A stretch of DNA of 32,000 nt from an uncultured Acidobacteriota bacterium (GTDB lineage: Bacteria; Acidobacteriota; Terriglobia; Acidiferrales; UBA7541), in assembly GCA_963737185.1 (NCBI GenBank), contig CAVTRS010000010.1, forward strand, positions 240,368 through 272,367, written 5' to 3'. Made by a program: the position numbers and the translations under genes. Below, in pieces: positions 6,169 through 32,000 of the stretch. The notes beneath the pieces were generated by a model that saw nothing but the letters and a program-made list of their open reading frames with translations, ran no database searches and was not told the origin of the DNA. Each line of letters opens with the position of its first letter. Positions within the stretch are counted from its first letter, which is position 1.

Positions 6169-6202
6169 CCCGGACAATAACTGCTTGCCTTTAACAGTGG
6201 AA

Positions 6203-6649: not shown

Positions 6650-6843
6650 ATGTTCCGCTCCCCGGTTGCGCGCTGGAGATTGTACGACGTCTAGTCCTTT
6701 TGAATCGCTCCCATTCTCTGTCGCACGGGATATTAGAGGTTTTGTGCCACTCGACCGCGAGGGCGCCCCGCAAGCCGTTTTCGCACTCCGCTGGTGTTAG
6801 AATCCAGCCGTTTCTTCGTTTCGCGAATTGAGGCTCGGCGAAA

Positions 6844-7380
6844 ATGTCGCAAGCGCGAACCAGGCCAATCGGAGTGATTGTCATCGCGGTCTGGGGATTT
6901 CTCTCTGCCGGATGGGTTGCGCTCTCGTACATACACTATGGGGGGTACGACCCCACCATGACGCCGAACTACGTTTGGCCTCCCCTTTCATCCCCTCCCC
7001 TTATTTACGAAGCGTCAGCGTGTCTTACTCTTTTGGCCGGCATCGGGCTGATCACGTTAAAGTCTTGGGGACGCATTCTCGAAATAATTGTGGCTGTGGG
7101 CAGCACGGTTCGCCAATTCATTCCATTTGGCTATATCTTGCAATTTGTGCCCGGTCTGACGTTTAGCTATCTGCACATTTCCGGCGAACCTCATCACATC
7201 CGAAACTTCGAGGACTTTGGTGGTGTGCCGGTTGGTGGATACTACGGCGGCATAATGGGCTTCACCTTTTCGTTTTGGGTCGTCCGGGCGGTTCAGTTTG
7301 TTTTCTACCTTTGGGCTCTTTGGTATCTGTTCACGCCGCGAGTGAAGCAGGAGTTTCGTAAAACGAAGGTAGCGCCATAA
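6844..7380 (+). CDS. Hypothetical integral membrane protein
   Basis: 178-aa ORF with several hydrophobic helices (IGVIVIAVWGFLSAGWVAL, ACLTLLAGIGLITL, FVFYLWALWYLF). Confidence 0.55.
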   Translation: MSQARTRPIGVIVIAVWGFLSAGWVALSYIHYGGYDPTMTPNYVWPPLSSPPLIYEASACLTLLAGIGLITLKSWGRILEIIVAVGSTVRQFIPFGYILQFVPGLTFSYLHISGEPHHIRNFEDFGGVPVGGYYGGIMGFTFSFWVVRAVQFVFYLWALWYLFTPRVKQEFRKTKVAP

Positions 7381-7396
7381 GCTTTGGAAAATTAGT

Positions 7397-7470
7397 GGGG
7401 ACAGACGGGACGTTTTCCATTTTTGAGGATCGGGGGATATCAGGAAACGTCCCGTCTGTCCCCGGTTTCC
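7397..7470. repeat. 74-bp REP/MITE-like hairpin element (full copy 1)
   Basis: Left arm GGGGACAGACGGGACGTTTTCC (7397-7418) and right arm GGAAACGTCCCGTCTGTCCCC (7443-7463) form a ~21-bp inverted repeat around a 24-nt loop. It sits between convergent genes. Confidence 0.9.
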
Positions 7471-7566
7471 TGAGTCTGAAATATCCGGGCCAGCGGACGC
7501 TTCAATTTTGTTCATGAGCCCATCTGGAGACGAGTTCCTGTACGGAGCCATTTGGGGGGCAGTCAA

Positions 7567-8448
7567 TTACCGGTTTCTCGAAGGCAATTGACCCACTGGA
7601 ATCAACCTTTTGTGACCAAATAAATCGTACTCGGCGCGCGTCAACATTCTGAGGCCGATGACATATTGGGCAGGGCGTGGAGGCGGTTCATAAATCAAAA
7701 CCAACTTCCATTTAGAACTGATCTGGCTGAACAGTTGTAGGAAAAATTCCCGGGCGGGAGCGACGCCAGGGCCGCCCATAGTGATATGTCCTCCAGCCAC
7801 AAGGTTCGATGGACCGAATGCTACTCCACCGGTGTGGACGCCAGTCTTAACTGAAAGAGCGTTCATGATGGCGTTAATCGTTTCGCCGAACCCACGAGTA
7901 GCCGAAGGAATCGATATGGGCGTATCTAAAATGGGGCTCACAGGTACCTCAACTCCGTTATCGTCGTGGGTTCCATCTCCCACGACGTCAAAACTACCAT
8001 CTGATAACAACCGAACAACAAAATGGCCTGGATTCCTGCTCAGATTATAATCCGAAACAATTTTTCGCAGCACGAGCTCTTCTTGGTCCCGTGACTGCAA
8101 TGTATTCGGCCCTTCCGAATAAGTGCTCTCGAATGGTCCTCCGGCCGGTCCTGGTAGAATCATTGCATCGGGATGTGCCGCTCGATAATTCGGATTCGTG
8201 AGGTCAATTAGATCGTATTTTCCTCCATACGGTGGATCTTCGTAATGTACATCCCATCCGTATTCCTCACTAACTGCGGTTATGGCACGTTCCAGAGGTC
8301 TGGCGTGGTCGGATCTTACGGTGGCCGTGCCGCCGTTGTGTTTGACGATTCCTTCCGGCATGTATGCATGCGGCTCGAGAATTCCCTGGGAGAATAGCCC
8401 GCCGGAAAGGACGGAAACAGCTAGGATGATGATTAAGATCTTACTCAC
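7567..8448 (-). CDS. Hypothetical secreted protein
   Basis: 293-aa ORF with signal peptide 'MSKILIIILAVSVLSGGLFSQ'. No recognised domain. Confidence 0.6.
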   Translation of the reverse strand: MSKILIIILAVSVLSGGLFSQGILEPHAYMPEGIVKHNGGTATVRSDHARPLERAITAVSEEYGWDVHYEDPPYGGKYDLIDLTNPNYRAAHPDAMILPGPAGGPFESTYSEGPNTLQSRDQEELVLRKIVSDYNLSRNPGHFVVRLLSDGSFDVVGDGTHDDNGVEVPVSPILDTPISIPSATRGFGETINAIMNALSVKTGVHTGGVAFGPSNLVAGGHITMGGPGVAPAREFFLQLFSQISSKWKLVLIYEPPPRPAQYVIGLRMLTRAEYDLFGHKRLIPVGQLPSRNR

Positions 8449-8594
8449 CCTTTTTCTCCTTTCAATGCATGGAAATCTTCATATAATTGAGTATTGTTGT
8501 TTCAATAAGTTTCTGTCTCACAACTATAGTTAGCATAGTCGTCGTCATAGTGACAATTGTACATTGTCCTTGTATAGGTGGGGATCGGGGGATC

Positions 8595-8668
8595 GGGGAC
8601 AGACGGGACGTTTTCCATTTTTGAGGATCGGGGCATATCAGGAAACGTCCCGTCTGTCCCCGGTTTCC
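8595..8668. repeat. 74-bp REP/MITE-like hairpin element (full copy 2)
   Basis: Identical to 7397-7470 except for one base in the loop (GGGGGATAT versus GGGGCATAT). Same orientation. Confidence 0.9.
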
Positions 8669-8728
8669 GAAAGAATCCCGAATCTATCCCACGCTGGACG
8701 TCAGAGATGGTGGCCCACTCACCGCAAA

Positions 8729-10003
8729 TCATTTGGACACTGTCGTTGGGTACATAAATTTTTCAAAGGCTAGGACATCGTCGAACGAACTTGAAGTTAT
8801 TTCCGTGTACCAAATTCCAGAATCCATGCGAATGACGGCGGGAACGTAGATGTGCGGGTCATTTAGGCCGCGCCTGTGCGGCTCGGTAGGCACGAAGAGC
8901 AACGCTTCGATCCGCTCACACGATTGCGGGCCCTTGGAGCCAGCGACGTGCTCGCGCTTAATTATTCTTGCATCCTGGAGCCTGCGCCGCAGGTAGTTTG
9001 ATGCAAAATCCGGGGCGATCAGATTCCAACGGACCATGGATATCTCCGCTCCGTCTGAAGCCCTCCATTGCAGCGGACCTCCCTGGACGGGTTGTGGCAG
9101 GTTGTTCTGATTCTTGAGGGTTATGACCTTTCCGTCATCGTCCATCATGAATGCGAGCGCGAGCACCCCATTAAATTTGAATGTTAACGGCGGCTGTGGT
9201 GTTCCTCCTCCGCAGTGAGGGCCAAGCGGCGGCACTGCCATCGCATCGCTGGTCGCCTTCAACAATTGAGCTTCGTCCATGGCTTCAAGGTCCGGGAAGT
9301 ATGCCCCCTTAGTGAGAGGGAACGATCTGGCTTCCGAGAAACTAAAACTATTCTCGGCTGTGGCTATGTACGCGCCAGTCTCTGGAATGAATTCTAGGAA
9401 TAGCAAATATTCATCTCCTGGCTTAAAGTCCTGAAAGTTTTTCTCGGTGGCATATACCGTTCGTTCGCCAATTTTTAGAACCCCTCCGGGCCGCACCACG
9501 ATGATCGAGTCCCCCGCCTGAACGGAGGCCTTGGAATTGTCCTTGAAGACTTGCTCCACCAAGAATCCCCAATCCGAATAAAGGAAGTATTGTCCTGAGG
9601 TCATGTGCGACGTGGCTGTGCCCGCCCTCCCCAAAACGACCAAATCAGCCTGGCACGTCTTCGCTCTCAACCTATATGGCGGATATCCGGCGTAGGTCCC
9701 CTCACCCAATTCCGTAATATGACTTCCGGTGACGTAAAGGTCGCCGCTCGTCTTCGCTAACTGCTGGGGTATCGTCTCAATTGAAGTATCGACGTGCGCC
9801 ACACGCTTGCTATGGATTGCCGCTATTTGGTCGGGCGTGAGGACAGGCGTGCCCTGGCTTTGGCTCACAAGACGAGCTGCCGCAATTGTTATTCCAATGG
9901 CTCCGAGGATGAACGCCGAGACAATAACTGGGCGGGTGACCCGCCGACTGACCCTTCCGTTATTTCGAGAGAGCCTCACAATCGAAAGATACCATTGCTG
10001 CAA
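8729..10003 (-). CDS. Hypothetical membrane-anchored/secreted protein
   Basis: 424-aa ORF with an N-terminal TM segment 'VIVSAFILGAIGITIAAARLV'. No recognised domain. Confidence 0.6.
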   Translation of the reverse strand: MQQWYLSIVRLSRNNGRVSRRVTRPVIVSAFILGAIGITIAAARLVSQSQGTPVLTPDQIAAIHSKRVAHVDTSIETIPQQLAKTSGDLYVTGSHITELGEGTYAGYPPYRLRAKTCQADLVVLGRAGTATSHMTSGQYFLYSDWGFLVEQVFKDNSKASVQAGDSIIVVRPGGVLKIGERTVYATEKNFQDFKPGDEYLLFLEFIPETGAYIATAENSFSFSEARSFPLTKGAYFPDLEAMDEAQLLKATSDAMAVPPLGPHCGGGTPQPPLTFKFNGVLALAFMMDDDGKVITLKNQNNLPQPVQGGPLQWRASDGAEISMVRWNLIAPDFASNYLRRRLQDARIIKREHVAGSKGPQSCERIEALLFVPTEPHRRGLNDPHIYVPAVIRMDSGIWYTEITSSSFDDVLAFEKFMYPTTVSK

Positions 10004-20439: not shown

Positions 20440-20595
20440 GAATTCTCAATTGGTTGCGTGGTCCGCGGCGGCGATTATGCGGGAATGATAGTCAATTCGC
20501 GGCCCGCGGACCACAATACCCGGCGCATGGATGCGGCTCATTAATGAAACACGAAGCCGGCAATTGAAACTCAATGATAGAATTGGCTGCAAGAC

Positions 20596-20672
20596 GCGCC
20601 CGTAGCTCAGTCGGAAAGAGCGTCTGCCTTCTAAGCAGAGGGTCGGGGGTTCGAATCCCTCCGGGCGCGCCA
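20596..20672 (+). tRNA. tRNA-Arg (anticodon TCT), CCA encoded
   Basis: Manual cloverleaf: acceptor GCGCCCG/CGGGCGC, D stem GCTC/GAGC, anticodon stem TCTGC/GCAGA with loop CTTCTAA (anticodon TCT), variable loop GGGTC, T arm GGGGG-TTCGAAT-CCCTC, discriminator G, then CCA. Confidence 0.93.
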
Positions 20673-20995
20673 TTTTCTCTTTATAATTATAGCTTCTAAG
20701 ACACAGATAACTGGCAGCAGGCGTTTAGTTTACCTTAGGTATACCACCGGTGACGGGCTGAAATCCCTCCATTCTGACCAAATCATGCAGTTCGATCTTC
20801 TTTTTCGGTTGAAGAACTAAAAAAAAGAGGCGCCGTACCTCGCGGTATCCGACATGCCACAAATTTCTCCGCAGAAAAAAGCGTTCAGTTCCATACTGCG
20901 CGCACTTTTCCGATCGGTTTTCACAAATCGAAATTAAACCGGAGCCATTCGAGTGTAACGGGATCGCTTGTTCAAAACAAATTCATAATTCTAGG

Positions 20996-22885
20996 CTAGG
21001 TCAGAGTTACCTTATTGTCCTTCTTCTTGCTCGGAGCCAGGTGATAGCGTGGCTGTTTGTGTTCCTTTTTGATCGAGTTCAGGAATCGAGACGGTGCGAG
21101 TGCAAAAGAAGTCTTCAAATATGTAACAGCAGCATCACGCGTCCTCGCGTGGAACAAATGGAGGTCCTTTTTTGCGCGTGTCATCGAGACATAGACCAGT
21201 CGGGCGGTTTCTTCAATATCCGCAGGCGTTGCTCCCTCTCTGGGCAGAATCCCTTCATCAAAACCCACTGCACAAACAACATCTGCCTCTAGGCCCTTAG
21301 CTGCCTGAAACGTCAGTATTCTTACCTGCCCTTCGGCGTTTTGACCATGGGATCGCAATTCATCGACCCAACTTCGAACTTCCTTCATGAGATCACCGCG
21401 ATTTGACCACAGCCCCAAGTCCCGAGCGACTCGCAAGAGAAACTCGGATACGTTTTTTTTGTCGACTTCCCGAAGAGAACTCAGTTTTTCAGAAAAGTCA
21501 GTGTATAACTGCTCCTTCTCTTTCTCGAAATCGAGGGAGTTCCAAAATGTAAGTCCCTTTTCAATTACTCCGCGCCAAAGGAGAGCGATCAGTGTCAGTG
21601 CCTTTTTGCGCTTTTCCCTCGTCTCCTCTTTCCGGCTGCGCCTGGAAGGAACTGAGACCTCACCGCTTTCACAAATGTATTCGATACATAATCGGAGAGA
21701 AAAATTATCGTTTATGTCCTCCATCCAATCGTCGACCACTTTGAGCAAGGCAATGCCGGTATCGTCAACAGGAGGAGTATGCCTGTAATGAACGTGCCTT
21801 CCTCGTAGCGCCCGCTTAATCTTATCTGCGTATTGTTTGGCAGGTATGAGAATTAGGACGCTATGCTTTGGAACCGATTTCTTAACAATTTCGGATATTA
21901 CGTAAGCCTCTTGGTCATCTGTCGCAACATCGTGAACAATAACTGGTTCCCCGTTCTGCTTGTCCGGGCCAAACGTGGCTTGTGGCTTTTCTTTTCGTGA
22001 AGGGTCAAAACTTTCTACTACGTTCAACGCCGAGTGAAGTATCTTATCCGGGCAGCGTCGGGAGCGGTCCAGACAGAAGAGCTTCGCATCTCTCCCATAT
22101 TCAAGATGGAACTCCCGGATATACTTGGGCGTGCCACCACGAAAACTGTAAATGCTTTGGTCGTCATCGCCTACCACAAACAATCCAGATGTGTGACCTC
22201 GTGACAGCAGAGATATGAAAAGTCGTTGGCCAAGATTAATGTCCTGGTATTCATCAATCAGTAGATGACTCGCCGCATTGCCATATTCATTGCTTGCGAC
22301 GGCATTTTCCGAAAGAATCTTTGATGCCAATAGAATCTGGTCATCATAGTCAATAGCACCGTTCGCGCGCAATATGGATTCGTATTGGACAGTAATCCTC
22401 TCTTCAATACTTTGGGCATTTGGCCGAATTGTTTTCTGACGAAGATCGTTTGCGCGCTTGCCATCGTCTTCCGCACACCCACACAGATACGCTGCATCGC
22501 GGAACAGAACTTCACGCAACCCCCCATCTGTCAACATTGTAAAATCATCGGGCAGACCGAGATCACTTGCGTGCGTACGTACGATCTCTAATCCTAGGCT
22601 GTGCATCGTTGTGATTCTCGTAGGGCGCTTTTCCAGGACAACATAAACCTCATTGTTTTCCTCGTTAGAGATACGTCGACGCATATTTTCTGCGGATTCT
22701 TTTGTGAAAGTAATCACGGTGATCGATTGGGGAGAAACCAACATGGTTTCAACGAGGTATTTAATTCTTAAAGCCAACTGATGCGTCTTTCCAGTTCCCG
22801 GACCAGCCAGCAATAGGAGAGGTCCTTTCTCTTTCCATGGCTCTGCAACGACTTGGGGTTTAGGATCTGAGGTGATCATATGCAA
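20996..22885 (-). CDS. UvrD/PcrA/Rep-like superfamily 1 DNA helicase
   Basis: Walker A 'LLLAGPGTGKTHQ', motif II 'LLIDEYQDIN', motif III 'VVGDDDQSIYSFRGG', 'CLDRSRRC', motif V 'ILTFQAAKGLEADVV' and motif VI 'LVYVSMTRAKKDLHLF'. The ORF starts with TTG at 22885. The first ATG is at 22879. Confidence 0.9.
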   Translation of the reverse strand: MHMITSDPKPQVVAEPWKEKGPLLLLAGPGTGKTHQLALRIKYLVETMLVSPQSITVITFTKESAENMRRRISNEENNEVYVVLEKRPTRITTMHSLGLEIVRTHASDLGLPDDFTMLTDGGLREVLFRDAAYLCGCAEDDGKRANDLRQKTIRPNAQSIEERITVQYESILRANGAIDYDDQILLASKILSENAVASNEYGNAASHLLIDEYQDINLGQRLFISLLSRGHTSGLFVVGDDDQSIYSFRGGTPKYIREFHLEYGRDAKLFCLDRSRRCPDKILHSALNVVESFDPSRKEKPQATFGPDKQNGEPVIVHDVATDDQEAYVISEIVKKSVPKHSVLILIPAKQYADKIKRALRGRHVHYRHTPPVDDTGIALLKVVDDWMEDINDNFSLRLCIEYICESGEVSVPSRRSRKEETREKRKKALTLIALLWRGVIEKGLTFWNSLDFEKEKEQLYTDFSEKLSSLREVDKKNVSEFLLRVARDLGLWSNRGDLMKEVRSWVDELRSHGQNAEGQVRILTFQAAKGLEADVVCAVGFDEGILPREGATPADIEETARLVYVSMTRAKKDLHLFHARTRDAAVTYLKTSFALAPSRFLNSIKKEHKQPRYHLAPSKKKDNKVTLT

Positions 22886-22897
22886 TCTAGTGCAGCT

Positions 22898-23452
22898 TCA
22901 ATTTGGATTCTTAAGTCGATACAAGCCTCGCGCAGTCAGTATGAAGTGTTCTGTATTCTTGCTTGGATTCCCCACACGATGCTTAGGAAGAAAGGTCCCG
23001 GCATAAGTTATACCGAGAGCAGAGTTCACGTCTTTGGCACGAAAAGGTTCTTTGAGCCGGGCAGTTGCCAGTGCCTCACGGATGCGACGCATCGTTCCAC
23101 GCTCACGGGCCAATTCGTCAACCTTGATGTCGCCTTTCACTTTCCCGCCAACCTCAACTCGCTTGCCTCGTCGCTCAAGGAACTTGATAGTCAACGCGAT
23201 TAGTACAGGTTGGATAAGATTCTTTCCCACATATTCCAGGACAAGAAAGGCATCGTGTAGATATTGGGCATAATTCGACGTATAGAGCTGAAGCGGCACT
23301 GGATTACTAAGCGCAAAACTCACGTGTTTAATCTGCGGATATCGTGTCTTGAGATATGCCTCAAGCGCCAGACTGTCCTCGTGCGTAGGAGGATTGCCTA
23401 ATTCCACTCGCAGAGGAATGGAAACACTATCATTTGATGAAGTTGGCGGCAC
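22898..23452 (-). CDS. Hypothetical protein (about 184 aa), first gene of an operon with the UvrD-like helicase
   Basis: The ORF ends 12 nt before the helicase start on the same strand. No motif was recognised. The C-terminal half is basic ('RGTMRRIREALATARLKEPFRAKDVNSALGI') and may bind DNA. The start is uncertain: GTG at 23452, no clear Shine-Dalgarno. Confidence 0.55.
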   Translation of the reverse strand: MPPTSSNDSVSIPLRVELGNPPTHEDSLALEAYLKTRYPQIKHVSFALSNPVPLQLYTSNYAQYLHDAFLVLEYVGKNLIQPVLIALTIKFLERRGKRVEVGGKVKGDIKVDELARERGTMRRIREALATARLKEPFRAKDVNSALGITYAGTFLPKHRVGNPSKNTEHFILTARGLYRLKNPN

Positions 23453-23557
23453 AGGCGGATTCTACATTGAAATAACATATCTACAGAAGTATTCTCTCGG
23501 GGCGAATGGTAGCATCAGCATCAGCATGGTTGGAGGGCCTGAGAAAGGAGAATTCGG

Positions 23558-23848
23558 ATGTCCGACAGAATGGGTCACGGTGAAGCACAAAATAACGCTG
23601 CGATAGCGATCGCCATTGAAACGGGCCTTCTCCAGACGTGCCCAATTCATGAAGACAGTATCTTTCCTGGGCCGAATGACATCCTTGAGGATGCCTACAA
23701 ACTGGCGAGCGCACGATTCAAAGCAGGCGACCCAGACCTCAAGCGTCTGTTTTCAAGTCAAAAGGAACTTACGGACTGCATAAAGGAAGTCGTTGAGATA
23801 CGCGATGGCGACGAGTGCGGCTCTTGCAACTCCGCTGGCAACGCCTGA
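23558..23848 (+). CDS. Hypothetical 96-aa protein upstream of AbiEii
   Basis: Strong Shine-Dalgarno AAAGGAG lies 7 nt before the ATG. It is divergent from the 184-aa gene and 81 nt upstream of AbiEii. The Cys/His residues ('TCPIHED', 'DECGSCNS') could form a small metal site. Confidence 0.6.
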   Translation: MSDRMGHGEAQNNAAIAIAIETGLLQTCPIHEDSIFPGPNDILEDAYKLASARFKAGDPDLKRLFSSQKELTDCIKEVVEIRDGDECGSCNSAGNA

Positions 23849-23929
23849 AATAGTTGTTCTTCCGTTCGGGCGGTTCGGGCACTCAGTGTTTTATGTGGAG
23901 GCAATCATCCGACTCGTTATGGTGCTCAT

Positions 23930-24781
23930 TTGGATGCTTTAGAGATCCGCAAGCTCGCAATCCTTGCCCTATTTTCTGACGACCTTCTCGCCTCTCTCCT
24001 GGTCTTGAAAGGCGGGAATGCGTTGAACCTTGTATATGGCGTCGGCGCGAGGAGCTCCCTGGATATAGATGTATCACTCGCTAGTGATTTCAAAAACGAG
24101 ACTCAGGCAAGAGACAAGATTTTCGAGGTGCTGACCAAGCAGTTTAAAGCTGCGGACCACACCGTAATTGACCTACGATTTGAACGAATACCACGGGAAC
24201 CTTCGGCAGGCGCCATGCCCAACTGGGGTGGATATGAGGTGAAATTCAAGGTGATTCCAACCAAGCTCTTCCGAACCTTGGGAGGTGATGCGGCAAAAGC
24301 TTCCCGACAAGCGGATGAGATTGGGCCAGGGCATCAAAGAACTTTCAACATTCAGATCAGTAAGGGGGAGCACTGCACCGCTATGCAAGAGGTAGAATTT
24401 GAGGATCACGCTATCCCGGTATACACCCCACCGATGCTCGCAATCGAAAAGTTGCGTGCGATCTGCCAACAAATGCCTGAGTACGAGTTCCGTAAGAACC
24501 CAACTCCGAGGGCACGCGACTTTTATGATATCCACACGATCGTGACGGAAATGGCCGTTGACCTTGCCACCGCGGAGAATTTAGATCTAATTAGCCTAGT
24601 CTTCGCTGCAAAGGCCGTTCCATTGCTTCTAATTTCTCGCATCGGCGAGTCCCGCGAATTTCATCGTCAGGAATGGCCGGATGTTCTGGACCATTTAACA
24701 GGGGTAATTGAGTCATTTGATTTCTACTTCGACTTTGTCATTGGCCAAACTAAAAGGTTAGAAGCCTTGTGGACAGTATAG
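23930..24781 (+). CDS. Nucleotidyltransferase AbiEii/AbiGii family toxin (type IV TA, DUF1814)
   Basis: N-terminal 'LVLKGGNALNLVYGVGARSSLDIDVSL' matches the 'LKGGTAL...R.S.DLD' NTase signature of AbiEii. At 283 aa the size fits the family. It has a TTG start. Confidence 0.75.
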   Translation: MDALEIRKLAILALFSDDLLASLLVLKGGNALNLVYGVGARSSLDIDVSLASDFKNETQARDKIFEVLTKQFKAADHTVIDLRFERIPREPSAGAMPNWGGYEVKFKVIPTKLFRTLGGDAAKASRQADEIGPGHQRTFNIQISKGEHCTAMQEVEFEDHAIPVYTPPMLAIEKLRAICQQMPEYEFRKNPTPRARDFYDIHTIVTEMAVDLATAENLDLISLVFAAKAVPLLLISRIGESREFHRQEWPDVLDHLTGVIESFDFYFDFVIGQTKRLEALWTV

Positions 24782-25630
24782 CCGCCAATCTGCGCTAAGC
24801 TGCGGATTCGACATTCCATTAGCCAAATAAAAGTCATAATGAAATCCAAGCTTGGCAAATTTGGAGTACTCAGATTCTTTATACCCTGCCTTTTGCATGT
24901 AACATCCGATCGCTTGGTGGTACGGATATGCATAGTCTAATTTCTTTAGAATCCCCATCAGGCCGGTGGCCGAAACTTTCTCTCTAGCAGCTTGATAAGC
25001 CGCCAACACTTGGTACACGCCCCCGGCGTACTCCGGACGAACAGTTATGTCGATGAGTGTCCTCTCGATGCCAGTCACATCGACCGTTGCGTCGGTCGGG
25101 TCTTTCATTTTCTCAACTCCAAGGTTCGCCGTGTTCTTGCCGCTGACGAGAACAAACCTCCAGCCATCAGATAAGAAAATATAATTGGACTTTCTCTGTC
25201 TTCCAGAAAATGCCCTGTTTATGCCCTCTTGCGTCATCGACTTTGGTCTGGGCTTAGGGCTTTGCTCGCGATTCACATAAATAGTCTTCGGGTTTTGGTC
25301 CGTAAGGCCATGAAGAAAAACAGCCGTCCCATGCGAGAGATACGATCCAGTCCTCATGGAAAGTGCAATTTGGAAGGGTGATACGTCTCGCCAAGCGTAG
25401 CGCACAAGGCTGCCATATCTTTCAGAGGCAAGCACCTTCTCCTGAAAGTACGTTTTTTCTATCAGGAATTCGAAAAAACCACGCGTTGTTTGGCCGCGCG
25501 AAAGATTCCAACGAAAACGATTTTCTGCAAAGATGGCTGCAATTTCTTTGTGTGAATAGACTTGTCGTCCTCGATCGTCAAAGAACTTAACTATGTCTTT
25601 CCTAGCGAGTTGGATTTTTGATGTGCCCAT
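24758..25630 (-). CDS. AbiEi-like antitoxin/transcriptional regulator (type IV TA AbiEi family)
   Basis: 'GSYLSHGTAVFLHGLTDQNP' and 'VTGIERTLIDITVRPEYAGGV' resemble conserved AbiEi motifs. The start is placed at the ATG at 25630 (MGTSKIQLARKDIVKFF). The ORF could extend to 25669. The 3' end overlaps AbiEii by 24 bp on the opposite strand. Confidence 0.65.
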   Translation of the reverse strand: MGTSKIQLARKDIVKFFDDRGRQVYSHKEIAAIFAENRFRWNLSRGQTTRGFFEFLIEKTYFQEKVLASERYGSLVRYAWRDVSPFQIALSMRTGSYLSHGTAVFLHGLTDQNPKTIYVNREQSPKPRPKSMTQEGINRAFSGRQRKSNYIFLSDGWRFVLVSGKNTANLGVEKMKDPTDATVDVTGIERTLIDITVRPEYAGGVYQVLAAYQAAREKVSATGLMGILKKLDYAYPYHQAIGCYMQKAGYKESEYSKFAKLGFHYDFYLANGMSNPQLSADWRLYCPQGF

Positions 25631-25658
25631 GTGATATGGTATATATACCATATCACAT
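25629..25658. promoter_or_regulatory. Perfect 30-bp palindrome P1 (ATGTGATATGGTATATATACCATATCACAT)
   Basis: Verified base by base as its own reverse complement. Core GGTATATATACC is at 25638-25649. It abuts or overlaps the ATG of the AbiEi-like gene. Confidence 0.9.
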
Positions 25659-25686
25659 TTAGGAGTCAACTAAAAGTTGTTTGTAG

Positions 25687-25718
25687 GAATGAATCAGGTA
25701 TATATACCTGATTCATTC
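25687..25718. promoter_or_regulatory. Perfect 32-bp palindrome P2 (GAATGAATCAGGTATATATACCTGATTCATTC)
   Basis: Verified as self-complementary. It has the same 12-bp core (25697-25708) but different arms. Confidence 0.9.
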
Positions 25719-25789
25719 GCACATGAGAAAGTCCTATATCTACGATGATTTCTGGCGATCCCGGTGAATTAAAGTTCTTCATCCTGTCC

Positions 25790-25821
25790 TGTTGCTGTAG
25801 GTATATATACCTACAGCAACA
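25790..25821. promoter_or_regulatory. Perfect 32-bp palindrome P3 (TGTTGCTGTAGGTATATATACCTACAGCAACA)
   Basis: Verified as self-complementary. It has the same 12-bp core (25800-25811) but different arms. Confidence 0.9.
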
Positions 25822-25970
25822 CGCATAGATACTCTCGTCGGGGATCAATGTGATATTTCGCACGAGACATGGCTTGCGCCGAAGATGTGCTACAACTCGC
25901 CGGGCTTCAGACGACTGATTTAAACATGGTGCTTCCCGGTTGTGATTAAAAATCCAAAGTAACGACCAAG

Positions 25971-25999
25971 AAAAAGGCCCGAACCTCGCGATTCGGGTC
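25971..25999 (-). terminator. Probable Rho-independent terminator downstream of the XRE gene
   Basis: On the minus strand, GACCCGAA-TCGCGAGG-TTCGGGCC is followed by TTTTTC. It lies about 75 nt after the XRE stop. Confidence 0.5.
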
Positions 26000-26074
26000 T
26001 TCACTCACCACCGTGTTGTGATTGGGTTACTGCGCTTTGAACACCGGGTGAGCTATACCGGGAATCGTGGAAAA

Positions 26075-26296
26075 CTAAGGATCCAAACCGCGTACCAAGA
26101 CCGCCATTGAAACGTGAAACACCTTGCAGATCCTAAGAAGAGTGGTAACAGTAATGGGTCGGCCCGTCTCGATCTGCTGCCAGTGTCTTGCTGAGAATCC
26201 AAAGGAAATCATGTCTTCCTGACTATATCCGCGCTTCTTTCGAAGTGCGCGCACGCGCCCTCCCAGCGCCCGAAAGAATTGCTGTTGTTTCGTCAC
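26075..26296 (-). CDS. XRE family helix-turn-helix transcriptional regulator
   Basis: 73 aa. 'LGGRVRALRKKRGYSQEDMISFGFSARHWQQIETGRPITVTTLLRICKVF' is a classic Cro/CI-type HTH. GTG start. Confidence 0.8.
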   Translation of the reverse strand: MTKQQQFFRALGGRVRALRKKRGYSQEDMISFGFSARHWQQIETGRPITVTTLLRICKVFHVSMAVLVRGLDP

Positions 26297-26405
26297 ACAT
26301 AAGTTTGTAGAGTCTCACGAGCAGAAAGACCACGAGGCAGATTAGCTGTTCTGCTTTGGAAGGTCTAGCCGTGAGCGAACCGGCCAACTGCGGAATCGGA
26401 GACAC

Positions 26406-26786
26406 ATGAACCCGATAAAGATAGCTGCAACGATCGCGTTGACGGTCGCGCTGGGGGCGACCGCATATTTGGTGTATGTAATGACGGTGGTCAAATCGGC
26501 GCAAGACAAGGCCGCGGACAGCTGCGCGAGTTGCCAAATGGCGAGGGACAACGCAGCGATGAAGTGGAAGGTGGATGAAGAGAAGATAAGGGCGGCGGAG
26601 CTTGCCGGCGGAGAGCTCGCGCGGTTGGCCGCGGAGCGTGCCTACGCTGGCGACCGCCCGGTGATACTCGGCCCATGCTCCGGCTGCGACTTTCCGCCTC
26701 CAGACTACGAAACGCCAGGCGCGGTTGCAGTACTTGGACTTGTTACATCATTGGTCTTGTTCGGAGTGGCAAAGCGAGTCCACTGA
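26406..26786 (+). CDS. Hypothetical small membrane protein (N- and C-terminal TM helices)
   Basis: GGAG Shine-Dalgarno before the ATG. 'IAATIALTVALGATAYLVYVMTVV' and 'AVAVLGLVTSLVLFGVA' are the TM helices. It is divergent from the XRE gene. Confidence 0.5.
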   Translation: MNPIKIAATIALTVALGATAYLVYVMTVVKSAQDKAADSCASCQMARDNAAMKWKVDEEKIRAAELAGGELARLAAERAYAGDRPVILGPCSGCDFPPPDYETPGAVAVLGLVTSLVLFGVAKRVH

Positions 26787-27015
26787 CCGTTAACGGTCGG
26801 CTCATCATATCGATCCTCATGCAATTTCAGACCCCCCTTCTCTACGTCGAACACTTTTTTGCATTCGGCTCTAAATTCACTGACATTCGCCATTTTGCGG
26901 AAGAGGTTCCCTGAGGATCATCACGGCGGCCGGAGCGCGTGGCAGGAGGAAATAGCTGTTCGCGCGCTCCGAATCCCGCCGCCCGCGTGACCATACGGCG
27001 CCACGCGGAAGCTCG

Positions 27016-27282
27016 TCAGTCGCTTCCGAACATCTTCGCGAAATCCAGTTCGGCTCCGGCTCCCTTTTCGCTCCCGTCCTCGATCGCCTCGCGGAGCGCG
27101 TCGAGCTCGTCGGCCCTCTCGCCGTGCGCCTTCGCCATCTTCTGGTGGTGCGCGGCCCCGGCCTCGTCCTTATCGTCTTCGTAGTGCGACGAGCGATCTT
27201 CGTGCAGCTTCCGAAGCCGCTCATGGTGAGCCGCGGCGCCCTTCAGATAATCCTTCACCTTTTGTTTATCGTCTGTGTGCAT
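27016..27282 (-). CDS. Hypothetical charged/His-rich small protein
   Basis: GAGGAGG Shine-Dalgarno lies 8 nt before the ATG at 27282. There is an internal duplication 'AAHHERLRKLHEDR...' / 'AAHHQKMAKAHGER...'. Confidence 0.5.
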   Translation of the reverse strand: MHTDDKQKVKDYLKGAAAHHERLRKLHEDRSSHYEDDKDEAGAAHHQKMAKAHGERADELDALREAIEDGSEKGAGAELDFAKMFGSD

Positions 27283-27342
27283 CGCGCTTGCCTCCTCAAT
27301 CTCTTCCACGCGCCTTGCTCCCGCCGCGCGCCCCCGCTTGGC

Positions 27343-27891
27343 TTACGCCGCGTCTTGGACGATCTCGCGGCAGATATCGCGCATCGTCGCACGGTCGTTC
27401 GCATACCACGCTATGACAAACCTTGCGGCGGGGCCATCGTCGCCAAATTTTTCTGCCGCCGCCACGAGCGATTTTTGAAACGTTCCCGCCGCCCGCTCGG
27501 CCCCAGTTCCGAGGACATCCAGTGGACGCGCGTCTCCTCGCTTCGCAGCCACGAGAACTTTGCGTACCGCTTGGTCGATCTGCTCGTTCAAAGTAAGTGG
27601 ACGCTCGCCGCGGAACTTCACGACGTCCGCACGCGACATCCCGATGGGCACGGTCTCATCTTCCGCATCCCCGAACAGCTCCATCATGAGCAGCCCATGC
27701 TCTAACTTGTCCCTCTCGGCCCTCGTGAGAAGTGTCGGGGCCGGAAGTACCTCTATCTGTTCGGGCGGCAGCGTCGAGGCGATCATCGCCGCGGCAGCAT
27801 CGTCGCTGTCGTAGAGAAGGTCCTGGACTAACGGGTCCAAGGCCCGGAATTCATCCAGCGCCTTCTTGATCTCGTCGCTTCGCTTTATCAT
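27343..27891 (-). CDS. Hypothetical protein (phage/satellite module)
   Basis: AAGGAGG Shine-Dalgarno lies 6 nt before the ATG at 27891 (MIKRSDEIKKALDEF...). 182 aa, no recognised domain. Confidence 0.55.
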   Translation of the reverse strand: MIKRSDEIKKALDEFRALDPLVQDLLYDSDDAAAAMIASTLPPEQIEVLPAPTLLTRAERDKLEHGLLMMELFGDAEDETVPIGMSRADVVKFRGERPLTLNEQIDQAVRKVLVAAKRGDARPLDVLGTGAERAAGTFQKSLVAAAEKFGDDGPAARFVIAWYANDRATMRDICREIVQDAA

Positions 27892-27917
27892 TTTTTTCCT
27901 CCTTTGTTTATTCCGTC

Positions 27918-28184
27918 CTACGGCTGAGACGCCGCCCATTGCTTCATCGCCCGCTGGAATTTCACGCCAGCTTCGTTGCGGGCGGCCTCGAGACGGTGGA
28001 GCTCCGCGATGTCCTCGCTCGCGGTTTCGACCGCCGCGCAGTAGCGAAGGCCACCGCTGACCAGTGTGAACCGCCGACGGCGAAAGTCGGCGAGCGCTAG
28101 CCCGGCGTCGCTGAGGGCGCGATCCGCAAGCCGAAGCTCTTCAAGCAGCTTCTCATTTGCGGTCTCTTGGCTGTGGCCGTTCAC
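27918..28184 (-). CDS. Hypothetical small coiled-coil protein
   Basis: 88-aa ORF. Its GTG start overlaps the upstream gene's TGA (GTGA), which suggests translational coupling. Confidence 0.45.
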   Translation of the reverse strand: MNGHSQETANEKLLEELRLADRALSDAGLALADFRRRRFTLVSGGLRYCAAVETASEDIAELHRLEAARNEAGVKFQRAMKQWAASQP

Positions 28185-28756
28185 GAACTAAATCTAACGC
28201 GTTTTCGCGGAGCGGGAGTACAACCGGGGGTACAAGTCACAGGGGGCACCAGCTTGAAAAAATTGCTCCCGACAGGGCGCACAAGCTTCCCCCAGAGCGG
28301 GTGATTCTTTCCGCGAAAAAATGTTCGCACGCGGGGGATTGGGGGCGTACCGGTGCGCCGCCTTTGGTCCGTCGCCCTGACGGGTCGAACGCGCTTGATC
28401 GCCTGGAGCAGAGCGTCGCGCGAGGCAACGCGGCGGTCTGCCCGATCGAGCGCGCGCACGACAGCGCGCTGCGGTTTCGTCAAGAAGTAGTGGCGTCCGT
28501 ATACGATCGTGCCGTAGTCTTCTGTGTGCCAATCGGCCAAGAAAACGGTTGGACGCAAGTCATGAAGCCCGCGTGACGCTTGTTCAGGAGTTAGATCGGC
28601 CATCGCCTCCACAACTCGCCGCGCGTGCTCAGCGTCTCTCGTCGAGCGATCAAACTCTTCATATTTACGGCAGCGGGGGCAGTAGCTTCCAACAAATTCG
28701 CCAACATTGTCATACCGGGCTTCCAAATCCCAGCCGCAATGGCAAACCGCATCCAC
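28181..28756 (-). CDS. Hypothetical zinc-ribbon protein, possibly DNA-binding
   Basis: GGAGG Shine-Dalgarno lies 6 nt before the GTG at 28756. Has an N-terminal 'CHCG...CPRC' four-Cys ribbon. The central 'LTKPQRAVVRALDRADRRVASRDALLQAI' looks like a winged-helix segment. Confidence 0.5.
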   Translation of the reverse strand: MDAVCHCGWDLEARYDNVGEFVGSYCPRCRKYEEFDRSTRDAEHARRVVEAMADLTPEQASRGLHDLRPTVFLADWHTEDYGTIVYGRHYFLTKPQRAVVRALDRADRRVASRDALLQAIKRVRPVRATDQRRRTGTPPIPRVRTFFRGKNHPLWGKLVRPVGSNFFKLVPPVTCTPGCTPAPRKRVRFSS

Positions 28757-28787
28757 TGTGCACCTCCACAACAGTCAAGCCGATCAA

Positions 28788-30425
28788 TCACCGGACGTCC
28801 CCGATATTATTGCGGTTGAACATGGGGCGTTCCGGCTCACTTCCAGGCCTCGCCCATTGTTTTCCGCATTGAGCACATCTCATTTGTCCACCAGGGATTG
28901 GTGACACGAGTGCTGATCCGCAGTAAGCGCAAGCCTTCTCTTCGGTCGCGGGCTTGATCGCCAGACTAGGGCTCTGGACTCTCGCGAGTTGCCTTTCCGC
29001 CGCGCCGGAAGATTCATACTCAAGGAGTCCAAGCCTGTCGATGCCCCGCGCGACCAGCACCAGCGCGCCCGCGGCGACGTTCGCGAGGTCGTCGTGCCCG
29101 CCCGTGCGATGGTCGACGGAATCCTTTCCGCCCGAGTGCGTCCGCCTCACAAGCCCGGCGAGTTGCGCCTTCAGGCGCGCATGGTCGAGTAACCGCACCT
29201 GTCGACTGTTCACGGCGGGCAAGAATGAAAGGTAGATGGCGGACTTTGGAATTTCCGATCGTACATAGCTGATACCGTGCTTTTCAAATGCCTCGCGCAC
29301 CCACTCCGCTCCGTAATAATCGCCGGTCACGGTCGAGATGTGCCAGCGCTTCAGTTCGGCGCAAAAATCGAGGACAACGCTGGACGGCACGAACGGCGGG
29401 CGTCTCTCTTGCAGCACGTCGAGCACGCCGGTGTCGTTCTCGGCGTGTGCGATGGCGAGTGTCATCGCGTCCGAGGCGCCACCCGACGGATCACAGAAGG
29501 CGTGATAGGATTCGCCCGGGCGCGGCGCGAGCTCAAGGCACGAGGGCATGACGCACGCGGAAATCGCCTCGACCGTCAGGAAGTTCGCGAGGTCGCCGCG
29601 AAACTGTGCGCCATACTCCGCTGAAGCGGCCTGCGGGTCCTTTTCGTACGCGCGGTCAATGATTTTCTGGCTGACGGTCGGGTTCATCTCACGAGTGGCG
29701 CCGACCCAAACCAGCTCGTCCGTGTTCTTCCCGAAGTTTTTGTCGTGCGCCTCCCACAGCGCGCCCTGCTGCGCGTAAGGTGAGCTGACGCCGAGGTGGA
29801 TCGCGCCGGGGATGTTCGCGCTGCCCTTCTCCATCGCCGAGAGCACCTCCACGTCAGGCGAAGCAGCCTGATCGTCGGTGGCCCAAAAAGCCAACTCGTC
29901 AAAACACGCGCCGATCACTGTATAGCCGCGCACGCTGCGGTAGTCCGACGCGTGGACCTCAATCTTGATGTCGGTCGACAGCTCGATGGAGTCCTTCGAC
30001 TCCGCTGTGACTAGCCGCGCGAGCATGGGGATGTCGCGAAAAAAGCTGGCGACGTAATTGAAGATTACCCCGGCCTGCGCTTTATCCGCGGCGAGGATGG
30101 GTAGAACGCCGACTTCCCCGCGCTGCAACGTCGGATAGTCGCGGAAGACGGCGTTGTAGGTGGAGATGAGCGCCGCGATCCGGCTCTTCCCGCTGCGTCG
30201 TCCGCAGATGAGCCACGCCTTGTGAAATGGTGACTTGGGAGCAAAGCTCCTCCCTGTGTGGCGCGAGAAAATTTGGAACTCCTCGGCGGTCAGCGGCAGG
30301 GCGTACAGGGCCTTGAGGAAAACGCGCCACGCCGACCAAGAATCGCCGTGCGACCAGCGTCGTGAAAACCATGGCCGGAATAACTTCGCATCGTCCATCG
30401 CCTCAATGATCGTCGGTGTTCGCAT
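28788..30425 (-). CDS. terL: Phage terminase large subunit with C-terminal zinc ribbon
   Basis: Walker A 'WLICGRRSGKSRIAA', Walker B 'IGACFDELAFW', nuclease-domain acidic motifs 'AFCDPSGGASDAMTLAIAH' and 'DHRTGGHDDLANVAAGA', and a C-terminal 'CAYCGS...CAQCGKQW'. Confidence 0.8.
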   Translation of the reverse strand: MRTPTIIEAMDDAKLFRPWFSRRWSHGDSWSAWRVFLKALYALPLTAEEFQIFSRHTGRSFAPKSPFHKAWLICGRRSGKSRIAALISTYNAVFRDYPTLQRGEVGVLPILAADKAQAGVIFNYVASFFRDIPMLARLVTAESKDSIELSTDIKIEVHASDYRSVRGYTVIGACFDELAFWATDDQAASPDVEVLSAMEKGSANIPGAIHLGVSSPYAQQGALWEAHDKNFGKNTDELVWVGATREMNPTVSQKIIDRAYEKDPQAASAEYGAQFRGDLANFLTVEAISACVMPSCLELAPRPGESYHAFCDPSGGASDAMTLAIAHAENDTGVLDVLQERRPPFVPSSVVLDFCAELKRWHISTVTGDYYGAEWVREAFEKHGISYVRSEIPKSAIYLSFLPAVNSRQVRLLDHARLKAQLAGLVRRTHSGGKDSVDHRTGGHDDLANVAAGALVLVARGIDRLGLLEYESSGAAERQLARVQSPSLAIKPATEEKACAYCGSALVSPIPGGQMRCAQCGKQWARPGSEPERPMFNRNNIGDVR

Positions 30426-30894
30426 CGCTCACCCCCATCCCCTCGCCATCTGTCGTGGCATCGGTGGCTGCGTTCATCGCATCCTTTTTGTCCCCGTAGG
30501 TCTGCGCGAGGTGCTCCTCGAGAGTCGGAATCCGCTTTGCCTCGCGCTCCAGCCCGAGCTGCGAGAGCAAGCGCGCGAGCGAATCCACGAGCTGCTGGCG
30601 CTCGCGGAGAATCGGAATAATTGCGCGCTTGCGCTTGTTGATCAGGCTTGGCTGCGTGAGAAGGAACGCGTCGACGTGGTCGATGTACAGCCTCGTGCGC
30701 GTGGCCATCTCGACCAGCGTTTTTTTCTGCGTCGAGATGTCGGCCCCGCCCAAGTCGCGGACGAGATCGTCCTGCCACGCGAACAGTGCCTTGGCGGGTG
30801 CGCCGCGACGGTCGACAATCGCGAGACCGCGAATCGCGATCCTATTTCTAATGGCGTTAAGTCCGTGTCGCGTTCGCGCAACTGGTTTCGTCAT
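30403..30894 (-). CDS. Putative terminase small subunit (assigned by position only)
   Basis: GGAGG Shine-Dalgarno lies 7 nt before the ATG at 30894. It is immediately upstream of terL and overlaps it by 23 nt. 163 aa with a basic N-terminus and acidic tail. No diagnostic motif. Confidence 0.4.
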   Translation of the reverse strand: MTKPVARTRHGLNAIRNRIAIRGLAIVDRRGAPAKALFAWQDDLVRDLGGADISTQKKTLVEMATRTRLYIDHVDAFLLTQPSLINKRKRAIIPILRERQQLVDSLARLLSQLGLEREAKRIPTLEEHLAQTYGDKKDAMNAATDATTDGEGMGVSDANTDDH

Positions 30895-31268
30895 CGACGG
30901 GCCTCCTTGACCCTCAAACACGTGCTCGTGTTACTCCCGGCCGCCCAGATGAATCCTCCGACGCTACCTGGAGTTTCATTCGTCCACGTCGAGGGGAACC
31001 GCCAGAGCCGCCTTGACGCGTAAGAACTCCCACGGGCGGCGAATCAGGTCCCGAACTCGCCTGTTTCCGACCACCAAGCCGGGCCAAAAGGCCGACTTCA
31101 GGCGCGATCGGGCTGGCATCCGGCAGTATACCCACGGGAAACCGACGACCGCGCATGAGTTCTAACACGTTTGTTATGAATAACTTACATCGTGCGACCG
31201 CCTGCTCGGTTAGCAGAGGGTCTGTTCTAAGTCCTTTAGAATCAATGAAATAACGATCGCGGCGGAAA

Positions 31269-31373
31269 TAGGACAGGTAGGACAGGTTTGATGCGATTCT
31301 CGGAAAATATCCTATAGAACTCATCCTATATATACTTTCCGAGAATGGGCCTAAACCCGTCCTACCTGTCCTA
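31269..31373. other. Origin-of-replication-like structure: iterons in inverted orientation flanking an AT-rich core
   Basis: TAGGACAGG x2 in tandem (31269-31286). A 15-bp perfect inverted partner GTCCTACCTGTCCTA lies at 31359-31373; the pairing reaches 21 bp with 1 mismatch. There is a nested 11-bp inverted repeat ATTCTCGGAAA (31296-31306) / TTTCCGAGAAT (31336-31346). The AT-rich centre has ATCCTATA x2. It sits directly 3' of the primase gene. Confidence 0.5.
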
Positions 31374-31386
31374 AACCCAAAATCGG

Positions 31387-32000
31387 TCATAATTCCCCCT
31401 TCTCGTCCGGACCCGCGTGATTCAGCAGCGCAAGCCCGGTGTACCACCGCCCCGTGCTGTGCTTCGCCTCGAAATTGAGGCGCTTCAACTCCAGCCCGAA
31501 CGCCGTCTTCGACCACGAGGTCTTGAAGCCATTCCGATCCTTCCAGCTGATGAATGCGGAGAAAAGCCGCCCGCACTCCACCCTCTTCTCCGCCCCTCTC
31601 TCGCACTCCTCGTCGACAAATTGCAGCACGACGTCCTGCCCTTCGCGATATTCGTTGATGGCGTCCTTGATTTCCTTCGGCTCGGTGAACCCGTCCTTCG
31701 CCCAACGCTGGAAGCCGCGCACGGCGAGAGCCAAGATTCCCGGCCCTTCCTCAGCGAGCAACTTCAGGTGCAAGTTTTTGACGCGCTCGGCGGGCGGCAC
31801 GGCGACATTGAACGGAACCCGCTTGATCCGATTCCAAATCGAATCGTCAGTGTCGTGAACCTTCGGCAGATGGTTTCCGGCCATCGCGAGCTTGGCCTTG
31901 GATGTGAACTCGAAATAGTTCTGATATTTTTTCGACGCAGAGATTATGTCTTGCCCCGTGATCTGTTTCAGCTTCGCCTCGTCGTAGCGCTTGCCCTGTC
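31387..32000 (-). CDS. Phage/plasmid primase, P4 family (C-terminal region); 5' end beyond window
   Basis: The frame is open to the window edge (..GKRYDEAKLKQITGQDIISASKKYQNYFEFTSKAKLAMAGNHLPKVHDTDDSIWNRIKRVPF..LKLLAEEGPGILALAVRGFQRW..INEYREGQDVVLQFVDEEC..). This matches the conserved C-terminal block of P4-alpha/D5-type primase-helicases. Confidence 0.75.
   Translation of the reverse strand, partial: QGKRYDEAKLKQITGQDIISASKKYQNYFEFTSKAKLAMAGNHLPKVHDTDDSIWNRIKRVPFNVAVPPAERVKNLHLKLLAEEGPGILALAVRGFQRWAKDGFTEPKEIKDAINEYREGQDVVLQFVDEECERGAEKRVECGRLFSAFISWKDRNGFKTSWSKTAFGLELKRLNFEAKHSTGRWYTGLALLNHAGPDEKGEL

Follow-up and report, generated by a model that had tools for sequence, protein, structure and literature searches.

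Two adjacent genes in the genome of an uncultured Acidobacteriota bacterium (assembly GCA_963737185.1) raise the question of whether a small protein and a UvrD-like helicase together form an undescribed defence system, or whether the helicase stands as a unit of its own. The window analysed here is the whole 32,000-nucleotide (nt) stretch from position 240,368 to 272,367 of contig CAVTRS010000010.1, to which all coordinates refer unless another locus is named. On its minus strand, a gene for a 184-amino-acid (aa) protein (22898..23452, GTG start) is followed by a gene for a UvrD-like superfamily 1 (SF1) helicase (20996..22885, 629 aa from a TTG start). A reading of the letters alone, called the sequence-only reading below, had described these as two co-directional genes 12 nt apart and had proposed them as a candidate defence module. 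The open reading frames (ORFs) were confirmed at 23452-22898 and 22885-20996, on the same strand and with a 12-nt spacer, while the helicase probably begins at the ATG at 22879, where its homologues begin, which gives 627 aa and an 18-nt spacer. The two genes may be co-transcribed in the window, and scans for promoters and terminators returned results at chance level. A Logan contig from run X1 covers 21303-25716 without a single letter of difference from the window; since X1 is possibly the source sample of the assembly, this match counts weakly against an assembly error.

Conservation of the gene pair

The 184-aa protein consists of an N-terminal ferredoxin-like domain and a C-terminal winged helix, and its linkage to the helicase was counted from both sides. 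For the helicase side, a scan of metagenomes with a clade-specific Walker A motif gave 37 loci, 35 of which were matched by tblastn, with L168 and L179 being fragments. Together with L002, three viral loci and L215 the 35 made a set of 40, from which 7 loci with less than 600 bp upstream were dropped. Neither domain of the 184-aa protein is encoded at any of the 33 clade loci that have 600 bp or more upstream, as judged by hidden Markov models (HMMs) that recovered their own controls, although some of the 33 are near-duplicates, so that the number of independent loci is somewhat smaller. From the small-protein side, a UvrD neighbour was present in 0 of 17 winged-helix loci; in one of them, L217, an unrelated AddA-like helicase lies about 7 kb from the winged-helix gene. 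Nor do the parts coincide at the level of genomes. Among 400 other genomes of the phylum, 11 contained the winged helix, a different one contained the helicase and one gave a weak match to the N-terminal domain, with no overlap, and among 200 other genomes of the order the winged helix was found in 6 and the helicase in none.

The closest relative with a readable locus points the same way. Its helicase (L183, 82% identical) shares an island of 7 kb with an integrase, a serine recombinase and one gene of no assigned function; tRNA-Arg(ACG) flanks this island on one side and a 60-bp att repeat on the other. The divergent integrase is only 185 bp away from this helicase, and the DNA ceases to resemble the window at the coding boundaries. 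In addition, L163 and L186 encode helicases that are 99.5% identical behind different upstream genes, showing that the helicase moves as a unit.

Therefore, the 184-aa gene and the helicase gene very probably do not constitute a conserved module, and the two are probably independent cargo and apparent chance neighbours. The proposal of the sequence-only reading that the 184-aa protein is the partner of the helicase is thus not supported, no conserved linkage having been found. That reading had placed the logic of the system either in the small protein or in the helicase itself; the first option finds no support here, and the second survives.

A distinct clade of UvrD-like helicases

Pfam assigns UvrD N- and C-terminal domains (PF00580 and PF13361) to residues 19-577 of the helicase, with 18 residues before and about 52 after them, and no other domain type. 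Indeed, Pfam, NCBIfam and PHROGs returned only UvrD/AAA/SF1 helicase domains and no fused nuclease, as the sequence-only reading had stated, and the ESM Atlas returned UvrD clusters only. The UvrD/PcrA motifs which that reading had quoted are present as well. The catalytic motifs shared with housekeeping PcrA, UvrD and Rep are intact, namely Walker A (Lys33), DExQD and motifs III, V and VI, and the motifs for nucleoside triphosphate (NTP) hydrolysis and for the single-stranded DNA (ssDNA) path are kept; by its family, the protein is predicted to be a 3'-5' DNA motor. Its closest solved relatives by sequence are of the PcrA/UvrD/Rep kind (PcrA, E 2e-67).

The helicase is nevertheless not a housekeeping enzyme of the usual kind. 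Its NCBIfam scores fall far below every cut-off (in bits, 231.6 against 911.2 for PcrA, 220 against 951.45 for Rep and 188.8 against 1144.45 for UvrD), and another UvrD/PcrA-type gene is present in the host genome, on C20. In a FastTree phylogeny of 103 rows, 52 clade rows, among them the helicase studied here, lie on one side of a long branch with an SH support of 100; the remaining rows comprise 45 generic UvrD-family helicases, 4 unassigned sequences and 2 GajA-linked GajB proteins, the last being few and long-branched and thus modest evidence. Clade proteins measure 600-645 aa, and several sequence features set them apart. The N-terminal Gln element, in a position-fixed count, occurs in 2/37 clade loci and 4/79 database homologues (40 further homologues being too short for scoring), compared with 147/154 other helicases. 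In a census that could score 86 of 119 clade proteins and 72 of 79 others, the GIG motif was present in 3/86 clade members versus 53/72 others, motif V carried Gln in 85/86 versus His in 72/72, and the tail after motif VI had a median length of 53 residues versus 115.5. Motif IV of the clade reads S-x-R-C in place of N-Y-R-S. The helicase in the window thus differs from PcrA, UvrD and Rep in having no Gln element, no GIG and no long tail, and in belonging to a patchy and mobile clade. The N-terminal helix of UvrD is reported to contact the adenine ring, and Bacillus cereus GajB is described as lacking this helix as well as GIG and a separation pin (PMC10681800).

Genomic context of the clade

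To what kind of neighbourhood does such a helicase belong? A defence or mobile gene was located within 3 kb in 15 of 25 clade loci, compared with 1 of 24 generic UvrD/PcrA/Rep loci (Fisher p 3e-5), a certainty that is overstated because related loci are non-independent, E-value limits differed and PADLOC was run on clade neighbours only. A strict defence count gave 11/25 (Fisher p 0.002), and a count by Pfam only gave 13/25. The 25 loci leave out viral loci, duplicates and loci without an annotated neighbour, and the 24 controls are a random draw from 79 generic UvrD-family genome loci; the controls thus come from genomes, whereas the clade loci come from metagenome contigs. The 15 positive loci comprise 6 with restriction-modification genes (L163, L169, L181, L186, L187 and L197), 5 with other defence-type genes, and one each with a toxin, a TIR gene, an integrase island and an insertion sequence. 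These counts uphold the defence-island or mobile context that the sequence-only reading had suggested. The other 10 loci had no such call: 8 have housekeeping neighbours only, an MtlR-like gene is present in L180, and in L193 an NTPase was weakly matched.

Members of the clade were found in bacteria, in one archaeal genome and in prophages. A generic-motif scan of genome contigs yielded a single clade member (L002) among 80 loci, the others serving as controls; plasmids at E<=1e-30 and annotated phages gave none. Across 41 loci, the immediate co-directional neighbours are mutually non-homologous, bar one near-identical pair, and no GajA-sized ATPase is encoded upstream in the 19 clade loci with at least 2 kb available. 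The clade is patchy and without a clade-wide partner, and its members pass, each as a single gene, from one island, prophage or restriction-modification locus to another.

Individual loci illustrate this variety. For example, in L187 (1326-10172) the clade helicase lies within a type I restriction-modification locus, between hsdR and hsdS, and the locus also holds an AbiE pair and a gene of the HTH-IrrE type. In L163 (14-4389) a tRNA-Ser precedes a fragment of a ThaI-like nuclease, then a 280-aa gene of no assigned function and the helicase, and inverted repeats, each about 125 bp long, enclose the whole. The helicase gene of L082 overlaps a DUF6998 gene, the helicases of the viral contigs L082-L084 are near primase, terminase or capsid genes, and that of L165 is beside ArdC/ParB.

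Comparison with known defence systems

The locus was compared with named systems by means of the PADLOC 2.0.0 HMMs (2023). As the sequence-only reading had supposed, no named defence system for the pair was found among these HMMs. The best PADLOC match of the helicase is GajB of Gabija (PDLC00117, E 5e-65, 218 bits), a model on which ordinary 700-780-aa UvrD/PcrA-type frames reach 305-319 bits. Like GajB, the protein is a UvrD-like SF1 helicase with catalytic motifs and a defence or mobile context, and like B. cereus GajB, as described in PMC10681800, it has neither an N-terminal adenine-binding element nor GIG. The differences begin with lineage, as the clade is separate and the two GajA-linked GajB rows fall outside it. 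They extend to size (493-499 aa in B. cereus GajB versus 629 aa here) and to a conserved aromatic segment after motif VI, which the helicase keeps at what the alignment suggests is the PcrA separation-pin site and where GajB has no pin. Furthermore, no GajA is encoded in the window, and in the genome, which is 84.9% complete, nothing matched a real GajA, the sole hit being to a P-loop over 80 positions; PADLOC did recognise GajA in the control loci L149 and L150. The absence of GajA claimed by the sequence-only reading thus extends to the genome as assembled. Taken together, the helicase would work like a GajB-type motor, yet falls outside Gabija on gajA and on lineage, and it makes a fair single-gene candidate.

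Two further systems combine a UvrD-like helicase with other partners, as described in PMC13069673. In type II Gabija (Liu-DS1, a GajB homologue plus GajC) the GajB carries an extra domain and has its Walker A lysine at Lys252, compared with Lys33 here. Its GajC is a split MazF-like fold (PMC13069673), whereas the neighbour in the window, which is no conserved companion of the helicase, models as a ferredoxin-like domain plus a winged helix; MazF is not among the fold matches listed for the 184-aa model, which are ferredoxin-like and winged-helix folds at Z 6-8. In DarHTG, where DarTG has recruited the UvrD-like DarH (PMC13069673), a UvrD-like helicase likewise stands beside a toxin-antitoxin defence pair, AbiE in the present case. 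DarH is reported to lack a 2B domain (PMC13069673), while the helicase here keeps about 150 residues in the 2B position, through which the PcrA alignment runs. There is also no DarT or DarG in this neighbourhood, which consists of ea8.5-like, AbiEii and AbiEi genes. The helicase and abiEii belong to separate transcription units, and among the other clade loci L187 alone has AbiE nearby. Finally, Nhi and Hna are single-gene helicase-nuclease defences in which the nuclease is fused to the helicase, and the present protein differs from these and from Hhe in having no fused nuclease domain.

Candidate functions of the helicase

Our preferred reading, to which we assign a probability of roughly 0.45, is that the helicase would be a partner-free, DNA-stimulated motor acting in defence. 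An integrated phage-satellite-like element would then carry the helicase and 184-aa genes as independent cargo at its low-GC end, next to the tRNA. The motor core of the clade is intact but has shed the elements through which housekeeping UvrD/PcrA is bound to adenine selection, to the gripping of duplex DNA and to a C-terminal partner domain, and it may thereby be uncoupled from host repair partners. Such a motor could load on DNA ends, nicks or ssDNA intermediates of an incoming phage or plasmid, and could then unwind or strip the invader DNA or burn NTPs and deoxynucleoside triphosphates (dNTPs), so that invader replication would be lowered without a nuclease of its own and presumably without need of the 184-aa protein. 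By comparison, GajB is reported to hydrolyse (d)ATP and (d)GTP on DNA termini with no unwinding (10.1101/2023.05.02.539174). A more specific version is held more tentatively still. In it, the whole widespread clade, having lost the N-terminal element that selects adenine and the tail for host partners, would act as a single-gene, nuclease-free anti-phage or anti-plasmid factor that is triggered by invader DNA ends or ssDNA, dismantles replication or recombination intermediates or drains purine NTPs and dNTPs, and boosts an adjoining restriction nuclease.

Several points weigh against the idea of a solo defence motor, besides the limits of the context counts and the 10 loci without a defence or mobile call given above. 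Gabija is reported to need both of its genes, the helicase alone giving no protection (PMC12407980), and in type II Gabija as in DarHTG the recruited UvrD-like helicase acts jointly with an effector (PMC13069673). A literature search limited to a library without subscription papers, supplements and DefenseFinder models gave neither a solo nuclease-free UvrD defence gene nor this clade. The linkage counts of 0/33 and 0/17 exclude the contigs of the fusion proteins P0004, P0133 and P0134 and of the closest helicases P0014-P0019, among which a narrow lineage carrying the pair is possible. The 6 clade loci that lie amid restriction-modification genes fit an accessory role. Moreover, two close relatives, L168 (225-1726) and L191 (3503-5004), have in common a GIY-YIG-like gene and, likewise upstream of the helicase, a gene for 364 aa without a family (78-85% identical), a combination that is possibly a three-gene candidate system; a GmrSD gene is also nearby in L168.

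The helicase might instead be a plug-in accessory, with no effect alone, that aids a nearby nuclease (type I or II restriction enzymes, GmrSD-HNH, GIY-YIG-like or DUF6998 proteins) by processing cut invader DNA or by repairing self-cuts; in this window it would then be orphaned, or would serve a host nuclease encoded elsewhere. The six restriction-modification loci, with the helicase of L187 placed between hsdR and hsdS, the overlap with DUF6998 in L082 and the upstream genes shared by L168 and L191 are all consistent with this role, as is the recruitment by DarTG and by a MazF-like partner of UvrD-like helicases that are required for defence (PMC13069673). There is, however, no nuclease beside the helicase in the window or in L183, and immediate neighbours that differ across 41 loci, save for the one near-identical pair, argue against it as well; we regard an accessory role as unlikely.

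Standing equally low in our estimate is a helicase with no defence role, which would serve the replication, recombination or repair of its carrier, or would be a neutral, horizontally spread repair gene. The primase, terminase or capsid genes on the three viral contigs (L082-L084), the integrase and recombinase of L183 and the ArdC/ParB of L165 speak for such a function, and so do the 8 of 25 loci with housekeeping neighbours only. Yet the position of the helicase differs between all elements, no relaxase or rolling-circle initiator is encoded beside it, and the element in the window has a primase-helicase of its own. The GC content of the helicase gene (47.8%) also fits the cargo and not the replication and packaging genes, the terminase gene having 61.8%.

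Less probable again is a two-gene defence module, possibly of a narrow lineage, in which the 184-aa protein would be a sensor, regulator or loader of the helicase. The genes are co-directional, 12-18 nt apart and similar in GC (48.8% for the 184-aa gene), the modelled winged helix could bind DNA, and type II Gabija offers a precedent for a UvrD-like protein with a non-GajA partner (PMC13069673). Against these stand the linkage counts, the lack of genome-level co-occurrence, the want of room for a partner in L183 and the fact that no catalytic family was found for either domain. Finally, an orphan GajB left behind by loss of gajA is very improbable in spite of the best match to PDLC00117 and the features shared with B. 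cereus GajB (PMC10681800), as ordinary UvrD/PcrA-type frames score higher on that model, the two GajA-linked GajB proteins lie outside the clade, 19 loci have no GajA-sized ATPase upstream and a whole clade of intact orphans would be unlikely.

The 184-aa protein

The neighbour of the helicase is a rare two-domain fusion with a relationship to other proteins that differs between its halves. Its N-terminal ferredoxin-like domain (about residues 1-105; 23138..23452, minus strand) belongs to a small family, of which a 3-row profile retrieved 10 proteins, 9 of them without a winged helix. The C-terminal winged-helix domain (about residues 113-184; 22898..23116, minus strand) carries the family motif FLPKHRxGNPG and is usually a stand-alone gene of 60-100 aa. 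Indeed, nearly all of the 151 relatives of the 184-aa protein at E<=0.001 match residues 113-184 only, most of them being 55-120 aa long, and both parts or the linker are present in only three other proteins (P0004, P0134 and P0133). No family for the protein was found in Pfam, PADLOC, NCBIfam or PHROGs, nor a catalytic family for either domain, and members of the winged-helix family gave weak matches only, to DUF7669 and AbiEi_4 (5/59 each). The ESM Atlas held no usable match, and searching the PDB sequences with the winged-helix profile yielded a single match, due to chance. In a viral collection there was no relative of the whole protein or of its N-terminal domain; a viral motif scan revealed one winged-helix locus (L263), and a second candidate from that scan, L264, proved to be a non-homologue.

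Modelling gave a pLDDT of 88.3 for the whole protein and, by AlphaFold2, of 89.9 for the winged-helix part. The latter matches SelB (Z 6.9, rmsd 2.0, 57 aligned residues) and Zalpha (Z 6.8, rmsd 2.0, 58 aligned), tied with many others, and the best folds for the N-terminal part (Z 8.0, rmsd 2.8, 85 aligned; Z 7.6, rmsd 2.4, 82 aligned) are generic ferredoxin-like domains; Foldseek gave no match at E<=0.001 in PDB or BFVD. On the strength of these models, the protein is most likely a nucleic-acid-binding regulator. Binding of Z-DNA was considered and dropped, since Zalpha is tied with SelB, IclR and many others, and for a nuclease role of the ferredoxin-like domain (Cas2/VapD- or HUH-like) no such entry ranked clearly.

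Two arrangements of the winged helix elsewhere deserve mention. In three genomes of the same family, a Rap1a immunity-family gene has a stand-alone winged-helix gene immediately behind it (L258 4315-5030, L259 5783-6496 and L260 5898-6559). In L218 (5301-11643) a membrane-anchored region precedes the winged helix in one fused protein, and this gene lies upstream of one for an SF1 helicase of 1789 aa that bears an MTES_1575 nuclease domain.

A tRNA-linked island within a satellite-like element

ARAGORN places a tRNA-Arg(TCT) at 20596..20672 on the plus strand. The sequence-only reading had put the pair directly after this tRNA; the linkage to the tRNA holds, while both genes run towards it, convergent with it, and the helicase gene ends 323 nt away, so that they are not downstream of the tRNA in one unit. 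The lower GC which that reading had noted was borne out: the island at 20673-26400 has 48.0% GC compared with 57.6% for the genome, and none of 3,698 windows of 5.7 kb taken in 1-kb steps is as low. Runs X1 and X2 have one base fewer at 20503 and at 26336, probable assembly errors that lie outside both genes. A second, milder low-GC stretch (50-53%) lies at 6000-9000, with ORFs without a Pfam family at 7567-8448 and 8729-10003.

The island does not stop at AbiE: terminase, primase, excisionase-like and integrase genes follow until the contig ends. Within the window these are a terminase large subunit-like gene (28788..30425, minus; PHROG 2, E 3.1e-17) and the 3' end of a 772-aa primase-polymerase/D5-type helicase gene (31387..32000, minus; PHROG 1156, E 6.6e-119). 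Beyond it, in L001, are an excisionase-like helix-turn-helix (HTH) gene (PHROG 66, E 0.0012) and the C-terminal half only of a tyrosine integrase (PHROG 1, E 6.7e-34, residues 68-216), the ORF of which lies 157 nt from the contig end. This part of the element occupies 26700-32000 of the window plus L001 2073-11149. No capsid, portal or tail families were found among the 19 element ORFs scanned, several of which had no family at all. By its gene content, the layout is that of a putative phage-satellite-like element, 15 kb or more in length, whose cargo lies towards the tRNA. It shares with P4-like satellites and phage-inducible chromosomal islands (PICI; PMC9122126) an integrase, an excisionase-like gene, a primase, a gene for packaging and a cargo block that is low in GC and includes Abi genes, and it differs from them in its terminase large subunit-like gene and in an integrase without the N-terminal half. 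Satellites are described as carriers of defence hotspots in the same source (PMC9122126).

The tRNA-Arg(TCT) is the probable integration site of the element. No second copy of its 3' end longer than 14 nt was found elsewhere in the genome, and the contig ends before the far att site; at 20755-20770 the T-arm of the tRNA recurs in degenerate form, which was considered as an att site and rejected as too weak. In G418, a genome of the same genus, an exact 46-bp copy of the 3' half of the tRNA lies 15.4 kb away and bounds an unrelated integrase/TrwB/TrwC element, so that the same tRNA does serve as an integration site in the genus.

AbiE and adjoining genes

On the other side of the 184-aa gene, the AbiE locus named in the sequence-only reading was recovered by both Pfam and PADLOC. 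A gene for a Lambda ea8.5-related protein (23558..23848, plus; PF20735, E 1.4e-9) is divergent from the 184-aa gene, with 105 nt between them, and lies directly upstream of abiEii. The latter encodes the AbiEii nucleotidyltransferase toxin (23930..24781, plus; PF08843, E 1.1e-24; PADLOC AbiEii), and it is followed by the AbiEi antitoxin gene (24758..25669, minus; PADLOC AbiEi, E 7.8e-20; PF09407) and by a gene for an XRE-type HTH regulator (26075..26296, minus; Pfam HTH_31/HTH_3). Here abiEii and abiEi converge and overlap by 24 nt, in contrast to the bicistronic operons described for AbiE systems (PMC3985639). Upstream of abiEi, at 25629-25658, 25687-25718 and 25790-25821, lie three perfect palindromes, each 30-32 bp long, with the common core GGTATATATACC and arms that differ. 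AbiEi has been reported to bind inverted repeats (PMC7319586), and these palindromes are possibly AbiEi operators.

Significance

A plausible but apparently false two-gene candidate is thus replaced by a simpler one of a single gene. The UvrD-type defence helicases of Gabija, type II Gabija and DarHTG are all described as needing an effector partner (PMC13069673, PMC12407980). An intact, partner-free clade would therefore mean either a new nuclease-free form of defence or helicases that act as plug-in boosters of restriction systems. The motif changes of the clade parallel those of GajB, the role of which is disputed, and this makes the clade a natural comparison for a motor acting alone. If solo defence is true, the clade would show what a Gabija-type helicase does without GajA.

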